Below, one piece after another: positions 160 through 10,209 of a stretch of DNA of 64,000 bases (position 1 is its first letter; every line of letters begins with the position of its first letter). Position numbers and translations under genes: made by a program. Under the pieces are notes generated by a model. That model worked only from the letters and a program-made list of their open reading frames with translations, searched no databases and was not told where the DNA came from. This stretch comes from Escherichia phage AV128, in sequence record OR352958.1, one strand, 5' to 3'.

Positions 160-187
160 TTGCCTTTCTGAAATTCTGCATTATAAT
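160..187 (+). promoter_or_regulatory. sigma70-like promoter (TTGCCT-16-TATAAT)
   Basis: -35 and -10 hexamers with 16-bp spacer, about 25 bp upstream of the 214 start. Confidence 0.45.
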
Positions 188-213
188 CATATTAACTCAA
201 AACCGGAGGTAAT

Positions 214-429
214 ATGAAACTCATCGACCGCGCCATCAAATCCATTGATAATCACTCCACAGCGATTGCTTTCGTAATGGGATTTTGTTTCACTGCTGCG
301 TTTGGCGACGTTCAAACATTCAAGTCTGTCATCTTGTGCTGGTCCATCTGGTCACTTATTTCTCTGGTTTTGATTCTTCCGATGACGTGGCTTGTTCTTA
401 CTTGTCTTGAATCTCAAGGTGAAGACTGA
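214..429 (+). CDS. small membrane protein (two hydrophobic segments, acidic C-terminus)
   Basis: GGAGG RBS 4 nt upstream of ATG; hydrophobic stretches in translation. Confidence 0.5.
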   Translation: MKLIDRAIKSIDNHSTAIAFVMGFCFTAAFGDVQTFKSVILCWSIWSLISLVLILPMTWLVLTCLESQGED

Positions 430-650
430 TGAGACTATCAATCAAAGAGCGGGTAAAGCGACCCAAAAGGAGTGAGCCAAAGGCCAAATACACATGCATC
501 GGCGGACCTTTTGACGGTCAAGCGATGTGGCTTTCAAAATCTAATCCATCGACGGTTGAGTTCAGCCTTCATGGAATGCGCGGCAGATACCTGCTAAATA
601 GAGAAACAAGTGGCAGCACATTTGTGGAGTGGAAAGAAAATGGCAAATGA
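429..650 (+). CDS. hypothetical protein
   Basis: ORF start overlaps previous stop (ATGA); same-strand block. Confidence 0.4.
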   Translation: MRLSIKERVKRPKRSEPKAKYTCIGGPFDGQAMWLSKSNPSTVEFSLHGMRGRYLLNRETSGSTFVEWKENGK

Positions 651-873
651 ATTGACTTTAACAGTACCAAAAGAAGTGATAGACAAGGCATGCGCGGATT
701 CAGTGAAAGAATTGGCTGGAGTTCTTGGAATTGAAAATGAATTCAGCGTTCAGGTGCAATTCCTTAAGGATACTCTTCAAATCAAAGAGAACAAAGAAGC
801 TGGCGGCGGTGCGCCTTTAGCTTTGGCAATAATCTATGCGGGATTAATTTTGAAGTCTGGAGGTGAACTGTGA
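640..873 (+). CDS. hypothetical protein (C-terminal hydrophobic segment)
   Basis: Internal ATG at 640 chosen over GTG at 610; start uncertain. Confidence 0.4.
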   Translation: MANELTLTVPKEVIDKACADSVKELAGVLGIENEFSVQVQFLKDTLQIKENKEAGGGAPLALAIIYAGLILKSGGEL

Positions 874-1025
874 ATCGTTGGTGCAGTTGGAAGCTGAAAC
901 GTCTCGCCTGGGCCAATGCCGCCAATTCTGCTGGCTCAATCGCTGCTGGTGTTGGGTCGATATGGGATGGTGAAGGCCGTTGGGCCTCGCTGTGTGGCAC
1001 GCGCCTATTCTTTCGTGTAAAATAA
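870..1025 (+). CDS. possible small Trp-rich protein (GTG start)
   Basis: GGAGG 4 nt upstream of GTG; 51 codons; below ORF-track size cutoff. Confidence 0.2.
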   Translation: MNRWCSWKLKRLAWANAANSAGSIAAGVGSIWDGEGRWASLCGTRLFFRVK

Positions 1026-1068
1026 TATTCACCCTTCCCATATCGGGAAGGGAATTAAAGAGGTTATC

Positions 1069-1410
1069 ATGAACAATACTTTATCACAACTGCTAATCTG
1101 GACAATCGCTGCTATCATTGGCACCGTTATTATGATGTCAAGCGCAAAGGCTGAAACGGATATTTGCGCCAGACTTATTTCTGAGAATGGCGAGATTTAT
1201 TATGGAAACTCAAAAGGTGATTACATATCACCTGAAGTTTGCGCTCAGAAGAAAGCAGAAATGCAAAAGCAATATCATGAAGATCAATCTATATCTCAAG
1301 CCGCTCTGATTGAATTAAGTATATCAGCCATCATCTTTCTAATCGTTTTTATGCTCATTATTAAACCAAATAATGACAGCAACCGTCATATTCCTCTCAA
1401 AAGAAATTAA
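1069..1410 (+). CDS. exported membrane-anchored protein (signal peptide, C-terminal TM helix)
   Basis: N-terminal hydrophobic signal ending AKA-ET, two Cys in mature part, C-terminal TM; AGAGG RBS. Confidence 0.55.
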   Translation: MNNTLSQLLIWTIAAIIGTVIMMSSAKAETDICARLISENGEIYYGNSKGDYISPEVCAQKKAEMQKQYHEDQSISQAALIELSISAIIFLIVFMLIIKPNNDSNRHIPLKRN

Positions 1411-1448: not shown

Positions 1449-3446
1449 ATGCCAAGGCTAATATTCAAAAACAACTTTGAGGTCGCGCTGGCTCAACCAA
1501 CGACGACTTCAGACACCACAATCACAATTCGCTCAGGGTCAGGCTTTCCGACCTTGGGCGCAAACGAGCGTGTAGTGGCGACAATCGTCGACGCTGCAAC
1601 AGGCCTCCAATTTGAAATCGTCACAGTAACAGCCGTGGTTGGAAACGTCCTGACCGTGCAGCGTGCACAGGAAGGTACTGCAGCGCGTGCATGGAGCGTC
1701 GGAGATTTTTTATCCATAAGGGTGACGGCTGCCATATTGACAAGCACAGTAAGGAATTTTGGAGAATTACCTTCTGGAATAAACTTAAATGCCCTTACTG
1801 GTTCTTGGTTCGGTCAATACCAGCAGTCTTCTAATTCTGCGGCTTCGCAAGTTCTGAATTATCCTGTAGCCCAATCAGGCAGCCTTGAGGTTATTTGCTC
1901 GGCAAACAACTCTGGTGACCAATCTTGCACGCAAATATACAGCACGAATCCTGACAACAAGCAGTACAAAAGAACTTATAATTCAGAAACAAGCACATGG
2001 TCTACTTGGGCTAAAATATATAACTCTTCCGACGTGATTCCAGTCTCCAATGGAGGGACTGGTGTTTCAGACACAGGATCAATAAGAAGAGCAATACTGG
2101 TTCAAGGTGTAGTTTGTAACGATCAGACGGGGCCGCAGTCGTATAACAGCTATCGTTCACCCAACAGCACCTACACTTTCAAGGTTGACAACTCAGGCCA
2201 GGTGGCCTCAATCAATACGGGTACTGAAGAGGTTGTCCCGTTCGCCGTAAGCGCTGGCGGTACAGGGGCAACTAACGCTTACGACGCTCGCATCTCATTA
2301 GGTGTGGGAAGATTCAGCGAGCAAACCAACGAGACTAAAGTTCTAGCACCCAACTTTAGCACTTACATTTACGTGAACGACACCGACTGGGGATGCTTCA
2401 GCCCTACCGTTGGCGGTCGTATTGCGTTGAGTGTGGCGAGTGGTGGTACAGGGGCAACTAACGCTGCTCAAGCACGTACTAACCTCGGCATTGGTTCCGC
2501 AGCAACATTCAACACTGTACCGTTAGCTAACGGTGGTACAGGGGCAACCTCCGACGCTGCTGCTCGCGTCAACTTGAAGGTGGATAAGCTCGTTCAAAGT
2601 TCAACTGACACTAAACTTTTAGATGGTTCAGGAGAGCATACTTTCTTTATTACAGATGGGGATTGGGGGTATTTCAATAATTCTGACTCTTCTCGAATTG
2701 CTCTACCGGTAATTAGCGGAGGTACGGGAGGGAAAACCCCAGCAGAAGGTTCTGAAAACTTAGGGGCAATGCACTGTTGGTACGGTTCCTCAGTCTACTA
2801 CGGTGGTGGTGATTTACCAACTGGTATTGGATTCTACAGCGGGGACACGTCACCTTTTCCGGGAGGTAATGGGGCACCCTTCATATATGCGGAGATAATG
2901 ACTATTGCTGAAGGTGGTCGTGGAGGTAACTGGTCCCAAATAGGGTTCTCTACTATCACATATGAAGCCCCTCGCTACAGACAAAGGACTGCTGACCCTG
3001 CTTTAATTACTAACTGGAGAGATTTCTTGATTCGTGATCTCAACACTACAGTTGACAGTAACGGTTTCATTAAAATCGCATCCCCTATCGTGAAAATCAA
3101 AGGTGACGGTGGTGCTGAGTACAACGACGAGTCTGAAGGTTGTACAGTGGAACGCATCTCGAAAGGTGTCTACCGGATTTCAGGCTGCCTCGGCTTAAAC
3201 TCTGACGCATCGTGGGGCGGCACTGACGGCGGCTTCGAGATACCACTCGACCGAAACAAGCAACCTCGTATTTGGCTGGACTATAAAGTGAATGAAGATG
3301 GATCAATTGATATTTTCACGTATCACAGAACGCACAGCAACGCACCAGTATTTGCAAGGAATAACCTTGAAGGTTATGCAGACGGAGACCCAATAGACAT
3401 ACCAAAGGATGCATTTATCTCTGTGAGGGTGCAAATGCCAAAGTAA
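1449..3446 (+). CDS. tail fibre protein with phage tail-fibre repeats
   Basis: Four copies of xGGTGATNAxxARxNLG-type motif typical of the phage tail fibre repeat family; 665 aa. Confidence 0.8.
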   Translation: MPRLIFKNNFEVALAQPTTTSDTTITIRSGSGFPTLGANERVVATIVDAATGLQFEIVTVTAVVGNVLTVQRAQEGTAARAWSVGDFLSIRVTAAILTSTVRNFGELPSGINLNALTGSWFGQYQQSSNSAASQVLNYPVAQSGSLEVICSANNSGDQSCTQIYSTNPDNKQYKRTYNSETSTWSTWAKIYNSSDVIPVSNGGTGVSDTGSIRRAILVQGVVCNDQTGPQSYNSYRSPNSTYTFKVDNSGQVASINTGTEEVVPFAVSAGGTGATNAYDARISLGVGRFSEQTNETKVLAPNFSTYIYVNDTDWGCFSPTVGGRIALSVASGGTGATNAAQARTNLGIGSAATFNTVPLANGGTGATSDAAARVNLKVDKLVQSSTDTKLLDGSGEHTFFITDGDWGYFNNSDSSRIALPVISGGTGGKTPAEGSENLGAMHCWYGSSVYYGGGDLPTGIGFYSGDTSPFPGGNGAPFIYAEIMTIAEGGRGGNWSQIGFSTITYEAPRYRQRTADPALITNWRDFLIRDLNTTVDSNGFIKIASPIVKIKGDGGAEYNDESEGCTVERISKGVYRISGCLGLNSDASWGGTDGGFEIPLDRNKQPRIWLDYKVNEDGSIDIFTYHRTHSNAPVFARNNLEGYADGDPIDIPKDAFISVRVQMPK

Positions 3447-5219: not shown

Positions 5220-5292
5220 TGGGTGTTGCTGATTTAACCGTGAATCGTGGGTCGCTGTGGCGGCCCTTTCTTTTGCCTGCCGCGCAGGAGTG

Positions 5293-5399
5293 TACTGCAA
5301 ATTTACTGTGGGCACAAAATAGTACGGTACTGTCTAGGACTTTTTCTTTGAAAAGTTAGTGGACCAAATGTGTCGTATTTTGATTAGTGTACTGCAAAT
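5293..5399 (+). repeat. two direct copies of GTGTACTGCAAATTT (variant of the ATAGTGCAAAT motif) 96 bp apart
   Basis: Exact 15-mer at 5291 and 5387 in a non-coding stretch. Confidence 0.6.
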
Positions 5400-5489
5400 T
5401 TCATCAAGTACCAAAACGCACCAAAAGACCCATGCCCTAAAAACCACACGAACGCAATAATCAATCGCCGTTACAGTTTCCAGCGTTAC

Positions 5490-5760
5490 AATTAGAAAGC
5501 GAATGATTCGATGCATAATAATATGAAACATAATGATTCGAAAGCGAATGATTGCGTGTAGGATAATATCGGTGGGGATTATTATATATGTCGGTAATTT
5601 CGCATGCGTACTATTTTCGGGCGAAGGGTCGGCATATTCCTCGTTTTAGTTCGGAACGAAGGGAAAGTTTTGCGCCTTTATAAAACAACGACTTACGCGA
5701 CCCGCCTTAACGGTCCGATATAGGTGTCTATATAAAACAAGGACTTGCGCGATGTTCTCC
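5490..5760 (+). repeat. cluster of short direct repeats in non-coding DNA
   Basis: AAAGCGAATGATT twice, TATAAAACAAsGACTTrCGCGA twice, several CGAAGGG copies. Confidence 0.5.
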
Positions 5761-5916
5761 ATTTAACGTAATACCTGTTATGCGAACTAAGGAGCATCTC
5801 GAAGAAGATTATGCGACGACGAAGGGAAGGATAAAGGAGTTTTCGCGTAGGAGCGCACCGAGATAGGGACGAAGAAAAGCCGCGACTAAGCGCGGCCTAT
5901 TAGTAACGGAAGGGTA

Positions 5917-6207
5917 TTATAAGGAGACGATTTTAAAATAAGTCACTTCGCCGCCGAGTTGCGGTACAGCGATATATTCGCCGCCGATTTCGGTAATCGT
6001 ATAGACGAAGCCGTTAATCGTTACGCGGCAGGATACGATGTCCTCGTCGCGATACTTGTAAAGGTCGAGGAAGTTGATCGGCTCATAAATAGACTCGATA
6101 GTTGCGTCGACGTTAGAGAGATAAACGCTCTCTAAGGTTTCGCCAAATACGTTAGAGTTTTCGGAAGTCTCGACGCGAGCGGAACGGATAGCGGCTAAAG
6201 TAATCAT
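5917..6207 (-). CDS. small protein, paralog family member A
   Basis: AGGAG RBS; shares VY..NVD.TIE and NG...EIG motifs with 6493-6795 and 7020-7304 products. Confidence 0.55.
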   Translation of the reverse strand: MITLAAIRSARVETSENSNVFGETLESVYLSNVDATIESIYEPINFLDLYKYRDEDIVSCRVTINGFVYTITEIGGEYIAVPQLGGEVTYFKIVSL

Positions 6208-6274
6208 AATAATCTCCTAGTTGGTCGGGCGGGTAGCGACCTATTCGCTACCTCATCCCCTCTCGATATAAAAC

Positions 6275-6303
6275 ATTATAGTCTTAGTGTACGAAGAAGT
6301 AAA
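6275..6303 (-). promoter_or_regulatory. sigma70-like promoter (TTTACT-17-TATAAT) for paralog A
   Basis: Hexamers on minus strand; flanking sequence conserved with the other two paralog promoters. Confidence 0.5.
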
Positions 6304-6322
6304 GCACTTTTCGTTATTTTTT

Positions 6323-6475
6323 CTATTTATTTAAAGCGCGTCTCCCAAGTTCGACGACCCAAGCGGCGGCATCTTCCGCCTTATTAAATTCGTATAGATG
6401 CTTCTTATCTTCGAAGACGTAAAATAAAATACGTCCGAACTTATTAGCCTTCGCGCTTAACTCGATAGTTTTCAT
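6323..6475 (-). CDS. small hypothetical protein (50 aa)
   Basis: AAGGAG RBS 6 nt upstream; below ORF-track cutoff. Confidence 0.4.
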   Translation of the reverse strand: MKTIELSAKANKFGRILFYVFEDKKHLYEFNKAEDAAAWVVELGRRALNK

Positions 6476-6492
6476 CTTCTACTCCTTTTTCG

Positions 6493-6795
6493 TTATTTTG
6501 CGATAAAATATTTATAAGCCTTATCGCCTTCTACGTCGATATACTCGACGATAATTAACGCTTCGCCGCGCGGCGTAACCGTCTCGATAAGGGTAACGGC
6601 TTCGTCGTCGGTCTTCGCGAAGCGGATGGCACTACGTTCGGCGTACTTAATATCGTCGAAGGAAAGGCCGACGAAAGCGACCGCGCGGACCTTAATGATG
6701 GTGGATTCTAGTTCCGCGTTAACGGCGGCGATAAGAGAACGAACGGTTAAACGGTCTTCGTCGTAAGTAATGATAGAAGAGATTAAAGTGGTCAT
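6493..6795 (-). CDS. small protein, paralog family member B
   Basis: ATG at 6795 with GGGAG RBS; track ORF extends to 6852. Confidence 0.55.
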   Translation of the reverse strand: MTTLISSIITYDEDRLTVRSLIAAVNAELESTIIKVRAVAFVGLSFDDIKYAERSAIRFAKTDDEAVTLIETVTPRGEALIIVEYIDVEGDKAYKYFIAK

Positions 6796-6851
6796 AATAA
6801 AACTCCCGATGCTAGTAGAAGGAAGGGCCATCGCCCGTCTCGATATAAACA

Positions 6852-6879
6852 AGTATACGCGAGTGTACGAAGAAGTAAA
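6852..6879 (-). promoter_or_regulatory. sigma70-like promoter (TTTACT-16-TATACT) for paralog B
   Basis: Near-copy of the 6275-6303 promoter element. Confidence 0.5.
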
Positions 6880-6923
6880 GAAAAAAGATAAAATAATTTA
6901 TCTCATTTTTATCGAAAAAGTGC

Positions 6924-6951
6924 TTTACTTTTTTCTACACTATATTATAAT
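6924..6951 (+). promoter_or_regulatory. sigma70-like promoter (TTTACT-16-TATAAT) for paralog C
   Basis: GTGCTTTACTT...TATAAT conserved with the two minus-strand copies; divergent from 6852-6879. Confidence 0.5.
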
Positions 6952-7019
6952 GTACTCATATCGGGACGGGATGAGTTAACGAATAGGTCGTTAACGCCTC
7001 TCCCAACTAGGAGTTTAAA

Positions 7020-7304
7020 ATGGCTATTCTTAACGTTTCTTCTATTCGTAACGCTATCGTCGAGAACTACGGCGTAAAACAAATTTTATCCGAAGTCTAC
7101 GCCGCGAACGTAGACCAAACTATCGAGGCGGGTGGGGTAACGGTCGCCGAGGCGTTTAAACTTTACGCGGCGTTACCGGAATCGGACCGCGAAGCCTTCG
7201 AAGTAAACGTTAACGGATATTTCTTCGAAGCGGTCGAAATCGGTAATATCTTACTCGTTATGGGCGAAGAAGAATTTGAGACCTTCTCCCTCGTCGAAGC
7301 GTAA
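7020..7304 (+). CDS. small protein, paralog family member C
   Basis: AGGAG RBS; protein motifs shared with paralogs A and B. Confidence 0.55.
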   Translation: MAILNVSSIRNAIVENYGVKQILSEVYAANVDQTIEAGGVTVAEAFKLYAALPESDREAFEVNVNGYFFEAVEIGNILLVMGEEEFETFSLVEA

Positions 7305-7384
7305 GAGAGGATTTTTAGAGCGTCGTGCGCGGCGCTTTAATAAAATTCTTTCGCGCCTAGCGCCCTAACAAATAGGAGTTTATT

Positions 7385-8011
7385 ATGGTTAGCTTAAATC
7401 GCTTTTCTACTAGCGGCGACGTTATCGCAACTAAGACCGCCGACCTCGTTGCATTCTATAATGCAAATTCCGGCTCAAAACCGATTAAGAAGTTTGCGGA
7501 CCGCCGGACCGCCGAGACTCGCGTAATCGCGTTAATCGAGTCCTTAAACGCGCTCGATGAGCCGTCCAACGAGTCGCCCATCCCTGACGCGAAGCCGCGC
7601 GAGGAAGTGTCCAGCGATGTAAAAACGCATAAGGCGCGTGCGGTCGTTAAAAAGGCCGAGCCGACCCAGGAAGAACTCGATGCGATGAGCGATGAAGAGT
7701 ATGAAGCCTTCGTTAAGAGCGGCTTAAACGATAGTGCAAATTGCGTAGTGCAAAATGGAACTCCTTCCCATCGCCGTTCGAATAGCGAAGGTATTGCAAA
7801 AAGTTGGGATAACAAGGAAGTGGCGCAAAAGCGTCTCACCCGTAACGGCGTTATTGTCGAGGGTGTAGGAGAGTTCAAATCGGTCCGCGTAGCGTTTGCT
7901 GCGCTGGGCTTACCAGATAGCAAGCACATTCGCTTCCGCATGAAGCTTAAAGAAGCTGGACGCTTGAACTTCGAGTTCGGCAACAAGTCCTACACCTTCC
8001 AGATCATCTAA
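7385..8011 (+). CDS. hypothetical protein
   Basis: AGGAG RBS; contains two motif copies (7731, 7746) near its 3' end. Confidence 0.5.
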   Translation: MVSLNRFSTSGDVIATKTADLVAFYNANSGSKPIKKFADRRTAETRVIALIESLNALDEPSNESPIPDAKPREEVSSDVKTHKARAVVKKAEPTQEELDAMSDEEYEAFVKSGLNDSANCVVQNGTPSHRRSNSEGIAKSWDNKEVAQKRLTRNGVIVEGVGEFKSVRVAFAALGLPDSKHIRFRMKLKEAGRLNFEFGNKSYTFQII

Positions 8012-8017
8012 TCGAAT

Positions 8018-8041
8018 GGCGGCCCTTCGGGGTCGCTTTTC
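8018..8041 (+). terminator. Rho-independent terminator
   Basis: Stem gcggccc/gggtcgc with ttcg loop and TTTT tail, 7 nt after stop. Confidence 0.5.
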
Positions 8042-8061
8042 ATAGTGCAAATTGGTGGCTT

Positions 8062-8325
8062 ATGAACACGCTTATTCTCATCGCTACGTTGTCCATCGGA
8101 AGTGGTCGCGCCTTATCCCTTTATGACCATAGTGCAAATTGCGCTTACCCAACGCGCGTTGCGGCGATAGTTAATAGTGCAAATCGAATGCTATTTGAGA
8201 CTTGTTGGCGGGTAGATAACGAGAAAGGGCGCATCGTCTTAGGTTATAGTGCAAATCTGCTGGTGGAGTCGTTCGATTGGACGGCGGAAGGTCGTAAATT
8301 GTTACGTAAAGTGACTAAAAGATGA
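8062..8325 (+). CDS. doubtful ORF inside motif array
   Basis: GGTGG RBS and bracketing terminators, but three SAN tripeptides are translations of the DNA motif. Confidence 0.2.
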   Translation: MNTLILIATLSIGSGRALSLYDHSANCAYPTRVAAIVNSANRMLFETCWRVDNEKGRIVLGYSANLLVESFDWTAEGRKLLRKVTKR

Positions 8326-8384
8326 CTTATAATAATACACTTTCTAACGCGTTTATGGTTGTAGCCTTCCCCGTCGTATTACCG

Positions 8385-8426
8385 ATGGCCCTAGAAGTTG
8401 AGAAAATGTGTTCTAGGGCCATTTTA
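8385..8426 (+). terminator. strong Rho-independent terminator
   Basis: Perfect 12-bp stem atggccctagaa/ttctagggccat, 14-nt loop, T-rich tail. Confidence 0.6.
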
Positions 8427-8439
8427 TAGTGCAAATTGG

Positions 8440-8913
8440 CTAGTGGCGGGAGAATTGCTCACCCTCTTTGGCTGCCTCTCCAAAATCCTTGTAGAAATCG
8501 TCCATGGAACGGCCCATTTTACTATTGCCATTTTCATCAATCATCGTGATGCCGTAGATGATATTCAGTTCACGGATAGCATTAAGCTTGGCTGATGCCG
8601 CGACTTCTGGATCACGCACAAGCTTCACTAAATTGTGGATGGAACTCTTTACGCTCCACAATTCCTTCAATGGCATCTCTTCCATACGCTTTTTGTAGCG
8701 CATCTTGTAGTACGGATTGCGCTGCGTGCAGAGGATTCGCTGGCCAGTGTAGTTATCGGTCGCAACCTCCATGCCAAATACTAGTGCAAAAGCTGCGCGC
8801 ATGTCATGGCCCTGAATAACAAGGTCAATGAACTCATCGAATAAAGCCTGATTGTGCTCTGCAAATCGCGGGTCTTCAAAGTCCTCAGGCATCGCTACAT
8901 AATCTTGACTCAT
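8440..8913 (-). CDS. hypothetical protein (about 157 aa)
   Basis: Long ORF downstream of a strong minus-strand promoter; no Shine-Dalgarno; start 8913 or 8928. Confidence 0.45.
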   Translation of the reverse strand: MSQDYVAMPEDFEDPRFAEHNQALFDEFIDLVIQGHDMRAAFALVFGMEVATDNYTGQRILCTQRNPYYKMRYKKRMEEMPLKELWSVKSSIHNLVKLVRDPEVAASAKLNAIRELNIIYGITMIDENGNSKMGRSMDDFYKDFGEAAKEGEQFSRH

Positions 8914-8948
8914 AGTGCAAAATCCCATAGTGCAAATTAATAGTGTGA

Positions 8949-8977
8949 ATTATACAATGATTGAACATTATATTCAA
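8949..8977 (-). promoter_or_regulatory. sigma70-like promoter (TTGAAT-17-TATAAT)
   Basis: Near-consensus hexamers on minus strand about 35 bp upstream of the 8913 start. Confidence 0.5.
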
Positions 8978-9140
8978 GTGCAGATTGATGTTCAAATTGG
9001 CTGTAAACGTACACAAACCATAGTGCTGAATGAATATCGGACCGTGGTGCGTGGTGTACTGTTTGATACGTATAAAAGAAATCCATCCCTTTCGCCGCTT
9101 GTTATGCAAATCAATGACTTAGCCGCTGCTGGATGGTTGA

Positions 9141-9430
9141 AGCGTATCATGAAGTATCATCCGTATTGCCGCAAGTCTTTGTTTTTACTTATATCTTACG
9201 GATGATACGTATAAATATAAGTTTAGTATAAGTATGAGGATGTAGAAAAAAATTAATTTAAATTAATTCAAAATGGAGTTAATTGTTTTTTTTCAAAGTT
9301 GTATAAAGTATAGCGGCGACGCGTATCATCCGTATCATCCGTAAGATGTACCACTGAACCCAGTCGCGGCGCACCATAGAAGTGTGTGGAGTGAACTACG
9401 GATAGGTCCAAATCTTACGTCATTATACGC
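9141..9430 (+). repeat. iteron-flanked AT-rich element A
   Basis: TACGGATGATACG at 9197; AT-rich core 9241-9300; inverted CGTATCATCCGTATCATCCGTA at 9322; homologous to 61620-61900. Confidence 0.65.
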
Positions 9431-9539
9431 TTAAATTCTATGCGTAAGGTTAGCCAGCTAACTATATCTCCTTTTTAATTTCAAGCGGCAATCCCATAGA
9501 CGGCGCAGCCTACAGGCCCACACACCACGGTACACGCTC

Positions 9540-9720
9540 CAATTCCTAGTGATTCCCTCTACAATCCCACAGCACCACAGTACAATATTCTTCCAAATAC
9601 GCACACATATTCAAGACACACAAATCACGTCACAATCCTCGTTTCACACCATCCTCTAATAGATTTACACAAATCAATCGCTTTATCCGATAATAAAGCC
9701 TCACAAACAACAGGCAAACA
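9540..9720 (+). other. G-depleted CA-rich non-coding tract
   Basis: About 14 G in 180 nt on plus strand by hand count; CACA-type runs; no ORF. Confidence 0.6.
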
Positions 9721-9738
9721 AAAAGGGCCAATCGGCCC
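9714..9738 (-). terminator. Rho-independent terminator ending the minus-strand early block
   Basis: Stem agggcc/ggccct with aatc loop; U-run on minus strand. Confidence 0.6.
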
Positions 9739-9756
9739 TCTTAACATTAGTCAAAA

Positions 9757-10209
9757 TTAAAATATAAAATTCTTCACTCCTAGCCTTTTAAATTCTTTCC
9801 TTAACATTATATTAAACTTCTTCAATTTAGTTTTATTCATCCTTAGCGGATTGTAGGTGAACACCTTTTCTATTACTTCCTCGCTCATTTTTGAGCGCAT
9901 ATTAGTTGCGTAATAGTTCTTGAACGTATAAATAAGGTAATTTGCTTCAAGCTTAAGTTCAATTACTTCCTCCGATTCATCAAGCTCAAGCAATCCTCTT
10001 TGCGTAAGAATATCTCTTAATATATCCTGACATTTCTTGCAATCACCTTTGCCTAAAAGCGAGTCGATATAATCGCCGCTGACGCGCTCATCACCGAAAT
10101 ATGTTGCGCGACCGCAAAGGCTTTGCACTTCTCCTTCGTCAAAGTAATGCGCACGATGGCCCCACTTCGGTATGGCCCAACCAGCGGCGATAAGCCGTTT
10201 GCCCATCAC
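9757..10209 (-). CDS. hypothetical protein (Cys-containing)
   Basis: ORF in tightly packed co-oriented early block. Confidence 0.4.
   Translation of the reverse strand: MMGKRLIAAGWAIPKWGHRAHYFDEGEVQSLCGRATYFGDERVSGDYIDSLLGKGDCKKCQDILRDILTQRGLLELDESEEVIELKLEANYLIYTFKNYYATNMRSKMSEEVIEKVFTYNPLRMNKTKLKKFNIMLRKEFKRLGVKNFIF

Follow-up and report, generated by a model that had tools for sequence, protein, structure and literature searches.

Is a short open reading frame in a phage genome a gene, or is it left open because the DNA motif that runs through it happens to contain no stop codon? The question is raised by ORF87, an 87-codon frame in a 64,000-nucleotide stretch of Escherichia phage AV128 (sequence record OR352958.1), referred to here as the window. 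A sequence-only reading had noted that the frame lies between two terminators, is preceded by a plausible ribosome-binding site and yields a product in which three SAN tripeptides are direct translations of the motif. It left two explanations standing: either there is a real small gene here that tolerates the motif, or the segment 8042-8426 is a non-coding transcribed unit, possibly an RNA, that carries five motif copies.

The window belongs to Wifcevirus, a genus of PB1-like myophages of E. coli, and 28 phage records of that genus (including WFH, WFC, Mansfield, FEC19, ECML-117 and Bas98-101) match its segment 6900-9800 at 91-97% identity. Members infect E. coli and Shigella; their genomes are about 68 kb long and carry a direct terminal repeat of some 3.7 kb (PMC6753283, PMC6563267). 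Around ORF87 (Table 1) the bracketing by terminators is present as claimed: both hairpins are far stabler than shuffled sequences, and a simple terminator scan of the window had neither 8018-8037 nor 8384-8423 among its calls. Each T-tract passes straight into a motif copy, that of the upstream hairpin into the copy at 8043 and that of the downstream hairpin into the copy at 8427. The three tripeptides (residues 24-26, 39-41 and 63-65) do correspond to AGT GCA AAT in the copies at 8130, 8175 and 8247. Two further statements hold in part. A ribosome-binding site can be recognized as GGTGG 3 nt before the ATG, but it is modest to weak, a caveat to any coding claim; in L008, a metagenome contig of 521 bp encoding a product with 57% identity to ORF87, a strong GGAGG precedes a GTG start by 5 nt. 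As for the five copies, those at 8043, 8130, 8175 and 8247 lie within 8042-8426, while the TAGTGCAAA core of the copy at 8427 begins one base beyond it.

Table 1. Features of the ORF87 locus and Chi clusters of related phages (window coordinates unless a relative is named)
Feature	Coordinates	Strand	Remarks
Direct terminal repeat, approximate extent	5602..9274	.	mapped from the Mansfield 3,673-bp repeat; holds the entire array
208-aa gene	7385..8011	+	phrog_4730; N-terminal helical domain, two disordered linkers, conserved C-terminal bb-aa-bb domain
Motif copies 7732 and 7746	7732..7755	+	within a linker predicted to be disordered in the 208-aa product; read SAN and VVQN
Terminator hairpin 3' of the 208-aa gene	8018..8037	+	dG -18 kcal/mol, z -4.8, then UUUUCAU; terminator in WFH GenBank record
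Intergenic motif copy	8043..8052	+	immediately 3' of the upstream terminator
ORF87, small beta-rich protein	8062..8325	+	ATG, 87 aa; hypothetical protein in relatives (CPT_Mansfield_003, WFH_00100)
Motif copy TAGTGCAAAT in ORF87	8130..8139	+	read (H)SAN(C); copy at same protein position in L008 and PA1
Motif copy in ORF87	8175..8184	+	read (N)SAN; conserved in L008, PA1 and Kyle; synonymous T>C in Mansfield breaks the motif
Motif copy in ORF87	8247..8256	+	read (Y)SAN; TAGCGCAAAT in L008 (AGT>AGC, Ser); GCA>GCG synonymous in some Wifcevirus
Single Chi GCTGGTGG in ORF87	8259..8266	+	codons LLVE; same strand as motif; oriented for RecBCD entering from the nearest end; conserved in L008
Terminator hairpin 3' of ORF87	8384..8423	+	13-bp stem; dG -20.9 kcal/mol, z -5.6, then UUUUAUA; terminator in WFH record
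Intergenic motif copy	8427..8436	+	between convergent ORF87 and small-terminase genes
Small terminase (TerS) gene	8440..8913	-	157-aa product, phrog_4783; homologue of E217 TerS (PDB 7UXE, E=9e-33); annotated in Mansfield
Motif copy antisense in the TerS gene	8782..8791	+	read FAL on - strand
Motif copies 8913 and 8928	8913..8937	+	abut the TerS start codon and cover its ribosome-binding region
Nested inverted repeats	9190..9350	.	centre ~9270, the physical end position (end taken from repeat-start records)
Chi clusters in relatives	L009 (Kyle) 255-1972; L011 (PA1) 1465-3037; L016 2140-3837; L017 673-1625; L010 (MTx) 179-1276		co-oriented

The explanation of the frame as a by-product, open since the motif brings no stops into a non-coding unit or RNA spanning 8042-8426, has on its side the two flanking terminators, the lack of a PHROGs or Pfam family for the product and the omission of the ORF from several GenBank records (ECML-117, FEC19, EC150 and others). 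Comparative analysis points the other way. Among nine Wifcevirus sequences, eight of them distinct at the nucleotide level, the 30 variable sites of ORF87 are distributed 4/3/23 over codon positions 1/2/3 (binomial p=1.5e-6), and dN/dS lies between 0.03 and 0.17 for informative pairs (Nei-Gojobori). Comparison of the window with L008 gives a dN of 0.36 for a dS of ~2.1, while the same alignment read in two shifted frames returns a ratio of ~1. Both substitutions that break the motif inside ORF87 within the genus (8175 T>C and 8253 A>G) are synonymous, and the T>C change in the third copy of L008 likewise keeps the serine. A second frame in the segment behaves differently: the 35-aa ORF 8322-8429, which shares ATGA with the ORF87 stop codon and extends across the terminator hairpin, has no codon-position bias among relatives (variable sites 3/5/5) and is improbable as a gene, yet two genes are annotated here in some records.

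The protein also exists where the motif does not. Searches with tblastn against 2.3 Gb recovered ORF87 homologues of 29-34% identity, with E-values down to 3e-6, in phages of Serratia (MTx, Hera, MyoSmar), Pantoea (Kyle, PA1) and Erwinia, so that the family reaches Kylevirus and Myosmarvirus. The Serratia homologues retain a protein core C..CWR..G..E.F.W..G. For instance, MTx_014 has no SAN and its DNA no motif, yet it has in common with ORF87 the elements L.L, C, N, CWR, G.I and VEEFDWT..G.K.LRK; P0126 and P0132, equally devoid of SAN and motif, keep C, CWR, G, E.F.W and G. A profile search brought the family to 14 members, and the resulting 15-sequence alignment with ORF87 contains seven invariant columns (C27, C48, W49, R50, G56, E69 and G77). 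From this alignment, AF2 predicts with confidence a fold of five beta-strands followed by a C-terminal helix (pLDDT 88, pTM 0.79). At the RNA level, a search of Rfam 15 at E up to 1 gave two sub-threshold chance matches only, and folding of 8042-8383 against shuffles showed no excess stability (z=+1.15), only the two terminator hairpins standing out.

Codon-position bias, dN/dS with its frame-shift controls, motif-free homologues and the predicted fold all contradict the by-product explanation, as does the lack of an RNA-family match or structure signal, and we regard it as extremely improbable. Sequence comparison and modelling together indicate that ORF87 is a real, conserved, ordinary protein-coding phage gene. 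The alternative offered by the sequence-only reading, a motif tolerated in a real small gene, is the one that gains support, and it can be sharpened, the motif itself being conserved at synonymous sites.

The motif is a 10-base element, TAGTGCAAAT, which takes the form TAGT[G/A]C[A/G][A/G]A[T/A] across relatives. Searching the 64 kb for its core TAGTGCAAA gives 10 exact copies, every one of them on the + strand between 7732 and 8936, against an expectation of 0.71 copies and a maximum of 3 in dinucleotide-preserving shuffles. Outside this array the genome holds only isolated TAGTGC hexamers. The array covers about 1.2 kb: it begins in a linker of the 208-aa gene, crosses ORF87 and both terminators, runs antisense through the TerS gene and stops at the terminase start codon. 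Copies are spaced by 14, 297, 87, 45, 72, 180, 355, 131 and 15 bp, that is, irregularly and without helical phase. Two genes carry copies in sense, translated four times as SAN and once as VVQN; TerS carries the motif in antisense (FAL), and copies also occupy three intergenic places. A TAGTAC variant is found at 8708, in the codons for NPYY of TerS. Protein constraint cannot explain copies that are sense, antisense and intergenic at once.

Evidence for selection on the DNA comes from the window and L008, where 29 of the 30 motif bases in ORF87 are identical, versus 128 of 225 bases elsewhere in the gene. The sequence-only reading had proposed comparing the conservation of the frame with that of the motif in relatives, and took synonymous-site conservation of the frame, together with detection of the peptide, as evidence against a by-product. 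Computationally, both are conserved: the frame through its third-position bias, and the motif through 11 of 12 third codon positions kept between these two sequences, versus 25 of 73 (34%) elsewhere (p=6e-5). The difference persists when only codons with an unchanged amino acid serve as reference (11/12 versus 15/37, p=4e-4). Within Wifcevirus alone the trend is in the expected direction and is not significant, with 6 of 52 motif sites variable versus 199 of 926 other neutral-type sites (p=0.11). Conservation at synonymous sites means that two constraints overlap in the same bases of ORF87, and these comparisons indicate that the motif is under separate DNA-level selection and is written into the codons of the gene. 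Since the protein family is found without the motif, the gene is the older of the two and the motif was added later at tolerant positions; the three SAN tripeptides are thus a DNA element accommodated in a reading frame.

The neighbouring 208-aa gene shows a comparable tolerance. Residues 114-132 of its product, which hold both motif copies, have pLDDT <50 and are predicted to be disordered. In ECML-117 (L004), a 30-nt patch at 7717-7746 has been swapped for an unrelated sequence of equal length between near-identical flanks, replacing SANCVVQNGT by APVGADKIAS, which fits a picture in which copies are gained or lost wherever the protein tolerates it. Our literature search found no mention of the motif, and as a cis-element TAGT[G/A]C[A/G][A/G]A[T/A] appears to be undescribed. 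The array itself belongs to a familiar class, that of repeats acting in cis close to the packaging genes and genome ends of phages.

The position of the array in the phage chromosome can be derived from related records. The terminal repeat of Mansfield measures 3,673 bp by PhageTerm (PMC6753283), and that of WFC and WFH is about 3.7 kb (PMC6563267). The Mansfield record starts at position 2375 of our 6900-9800 query, and the small-terminase gene occupies 361-831 in the WFC, WFH, Ro157lw and SP13 records, all of which begin at the repeat. The physical left end therefore falls at ~9273/9274 of the window and the repeat at ~5602-9274, an extent transferred from Mansfield under the assumption of no indels. 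ORF87 and the motif array consequently lie inside the terminal repeat, and a gap of about 340 bp separates the array from the physical genome end. Nested inverted repeats, all in AT-rich DNA, are centred on this end, with 23-nt arms at 9190-9212/9328-9350, 14-nt arms at 9245-9258/9281-9294 and a palindrome at 9257-9272. Judged by this symmetry, the 9190-9350 region is probably where the terminase cleaves. The concatemer junction reconstructed for Kyle is likewise symmetric, within ~6 nt of the end, while the end of MTx has no comparable symmetry detectable with 9-mer seeds.

Other repeats were noticed around the opposite, inner boundary of the repeat (~5602). Just outside it, AATGATT(C/G) occurs three times at 5491-5569. 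Clusters of AATGATTA-type repeats are present in Kyle (L009 3419-3591), where they adjoin the inner repeat boundary (3603), and in PA1 (L011 5091-5199); these clusters and the AATGATT(C/G) repeats may represent a boundary signal. Further out, 200-300 bp beyond the terminal repeat, GTGTACTGCAAATTT, a relative of the motif with one mismatch, appears twice on the motif's strand (5290-5306 and 5387-5403).

The array is not confined to Wifcevirus. The arrangement of the 208-aa gene, ORF87 and a convergent TerS gene is shared by Wifcevirus, L016, L017, Kyle and PA1, and partly by the short L008 contig. In lineages whose proteins are only about 30-55% identical, the homologous 1 kb contains 11-17 same-strand copies of TAGT[G/A]C (9-14 of them TAGTGC), with 0-2 copies on the opposite strand, and this one-strand orientation is shared by six lineages. 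In Kyle, 14 of the 19 copies found genome-wide on the array strand fall at 477-1478 of the repeat. No TAGTGC array was found in Serratia phage MTx, in Pbunavirus Ab27 or in the more distant metagenomic contigs L018-L021. MTx carries instead, right after its TerS gene and in intergenic DNA (L010 951-1093), three direct repeats of 25-39 bp with the core AAAAAATAAGCATGCTTTGTA, at the counterpart of the centre of the Wifcevirus array. A scan of viral contigs for motif pairs returned, outside Wifcevirus, only chance matches and tandem coding repeats, and its eight multi-copy loci had no TerS, 208-aa or ORF87 homologue by tblastn. Phylogenetic profiling for genes present in Wifcevirus and Kyle and absent from MTx left a few uncharacterized ORFs with no Pfam domain.

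Taken as one statement, the coding nature of ORF87, the DNA-level selection on the motif, and the extent, orientation, terminal-repeat position and Kylevirus conservation of the array can be held with high confidence. The function of the array is a more tentative matter, and four roles were weighed.

By analogy with characterized phages, the most likely role, though one we would propose only tentatively, is that of packaging-recognition sites. The copies would be binding sites for the phage packaging machinery, most probably for the TerS encoded within the array; once bound, they would tag the concatemer and give the cutting at the symmetric site ~340 bp away its direction. This rating rests on a layout resembling that of lambda cosN-cosB-Nu1 and of P22 and P1, where pac lies in the TerS gene. 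Here the array, 7732-8936, spans the whole TerS gene inside the terminal repeat, close to a candidate cut site (~9274) centred in inverted repeats, and the motif-free MTx has a different triple repeat right after TerS. In P22 the pac site is inside the TerS gene, and in SPP1 TerS contacts the DNA at several points flanking the cut (PMC9611059). Only two features of TerS follow the motif, and both reflect a single clade split. Before NPYY, [Q/K/R]R in lineages with the motif is replaced by E-x in those lacking it, the E217 type among them; in the segment 'L-x-[VI]-x-G' / 'LRV.G', a non-basic residue corresponds to R in motif-free lineages. These residues are possible specificity determinants. 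Several observations weigh against recognition by TerS. The spacing of 14-355 bp is too irregular to resemble wrapping round one TerS ring, the TerS differences are few and amount essentially to one evolutionary split, and motif conservation within Wifcevirus falls short of significance, as given above. The solved E217 TerS, a decamer encoded at a distance from the large terminase, did not bind DNA to an appreciable extent in vitro (PMC9611059).

The main rival to packaging is a signal for end processing or recombination, which we consider unlikely but worth setting out. The motif, together with Chi, would signal to a helicase-nuclease or an end-binding factor, limiting degradation and promoting recombination between terminal repeats into concatemers. 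The motif TAGTGCAAAT is neither Chi nor a documented Chi variant, and no known enzyme recognises it. It lies, however, on the Chi strand and points to the end at ~9274 (the strand ending 3' at the entry end), which is the orientation active for RecBCD coming from the nearest end, and Wifcevirus retains one Chi inside ORF87. In Pantoea and Serratia relatives, co-oriented clusters of 4-10 Chi sites occupy the first 1.3-2 kb of the terminal repeat, where 0.03 sites are expected per kb per strand. This zone (the first 2 kb in Kyle) holds nine of the 13 Chi sites that Kyle has on that strand genome-wide, seven sites in PA1, seven in L016, four in L017 and four of five in MTx; Pbunavirus Ab27 and L018-L021 have no such cluster. 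In the Pantoea phages (Kylevirus), and likewise in L016 and L017, the same TAGTGC array is interspersed with the Chi clusters over the same 1-2 kb of the repeat. Terminal Chi clusters are documented in P1 and LLS-type lambdoid phages (PMC12315714), and no recombinase or RecBCD inhibitor is annotated within positions 1-50,000 of Bas99. The co-oriented clusters suggest, at the level of sequence, that the relatives use host RecBCD at their terminal repeats. Against a joint role stands MTx, which has a Chi cluster without the motif, so that motif and Chi are separable. A composite element made of the motif and a Chi-like TGGTGG was considered and rejected, adjacency being no more frequent than by chance (7 versus 4.6 expected, p=0.18).

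Two other roles fit the layout poorly. It is quite unlikely that the copies are operator or promoter-like sites through which a phage or host regulator would time the terminal-repeat genes, for instance by repressing the TerS gene. It is true that the copies at 8913 and 8928 overlie the start of TerS and its ribosome-binding region, a short way downstream of matches to sigma-70-like promoters (8995-8949, - strand), and that those at 8043 and 8427 abut terminator T-tracts; yet most copies are in coding sequence far from promoters, the position upstream of TerS is not kept in Kyle, PA1 or L016, no extended consensus with -35/-10 spacing emerges, and the rest of the genome offers such a regulator only the isolated hexamers mentioned above. 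Very unlikely, in turn, is an iteron-type replication origin within the terminal repeat. Wide and irregular spacing over three genes differs from the regular ~20-22 bp of iterons in non-coding DNA, and the skew changes at the place where gene orientation switches. The 208-aa protein has no Pfam or PDB sequence match and no Rep-like domain was found in it; moreover, its C-terminal domain is equally conserved in motif-free lineages.

Returning to packaging and its main rival, the motif could plausibly be an orientation-specific cis-element belonging to those PB1-like enterobacterial phages that have long terminal repeats. It would then be either the first defined TerS recognition array in this group or a new Chi-like end signal working alongside Chi, with 10-17 copies woven into the codons of three genes, the terminase gene among them. 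What makes the locus noteworthy is that ORF87, the neighbouring 208-aa gene and the TerS gene all carry a separately selected, strand-specific DNA element in the terminal repeat. For annotation, it follows that ORF87 merits keeping as a gene, including in the public Wifcevirus records that omit it. The locus also provides a clean case of overlapping codes, in which a protein under purifying selection owes three tripeptides to a DNA signal that is itself kept at synonymous sites. Should the array prove to be a packaging signal, it would give a handle on DNA recognition by PB1-like phages, among which are the Pseudomonas phages used most in therapy, and a defined cassette for the engineering of packaging or transduction.

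Several known systems help to situate the locus. As a protein, ORF87 belongs with CPT_Mansfield_003, WFH_00100, KYLE_2 and CPT_MTx_014. The Wifcevirus and Kylevirus members of this family share its place between the 208-aa gene and TerS, whereas the MTx member lacks the motif, is encoded outside the terminal repeat and carries a signal-like extension at its N-terminus.

As a DNA element, the array recalls T7, in which the short-repeat arrays SRL and SRR are said, after work by Dunn and Studier in 1983, to flank the terminal repetition and to be implicated in concatemer processing. Both phages have exact ends and around ten short direct repeats by the terminal repeat; those of T7 form compact non-coding arrays just outside a 160-bp repeat, whereas those described here are inside a 3.7-kb repeat and mostly genic. 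The terminal Chi sites of P1 and LLS-type phages offer another parallel, that of an oriented, octamer-scale signal concentrated close to a genome end, on the strand that the entering enzyme reads (PMC12315714). Here, in contrast, TAGTGCAAAT is not Chi, no enzyme is known to read it, and the Wifcevirus zone has a single Chi.

Closer to packaging, the pac site of P1 consists of hexamer repeats in pacA. P22 has a 22-bp pac in gene 3, and in SPP1 pacL and pacR lie around gene 1 (PMC9611059). As in these phages, an asymmetric cis recognition sequence would lie in or beside the codons of TerS, near the first terminase cut, here a candidate one. P22, P1 and SPP1 differ in packaging by the headful, whereas Wifcevirus has exact ends and a 3.7-kb direct repeat; its 10-17 copies are widely and irregularly spread over 1.2 kb and into two neighbouring genes, and binding by TerS is putative.

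In lambda, cosN is followed by the R-sites of cosB and then by Nu1. The same layout is given in PMC9611059. The Wifcevirus locus would follow a similar order, with a symmetric putative cut site (9190-9350), repeats on one side of it, and a TerS gene that comes next to or overlaps them. Lambda has three R sites in ~120 bp, an IHF site and cohesive ends, whereas here at least ten copies in one orientation accompany direct terminal repeats.
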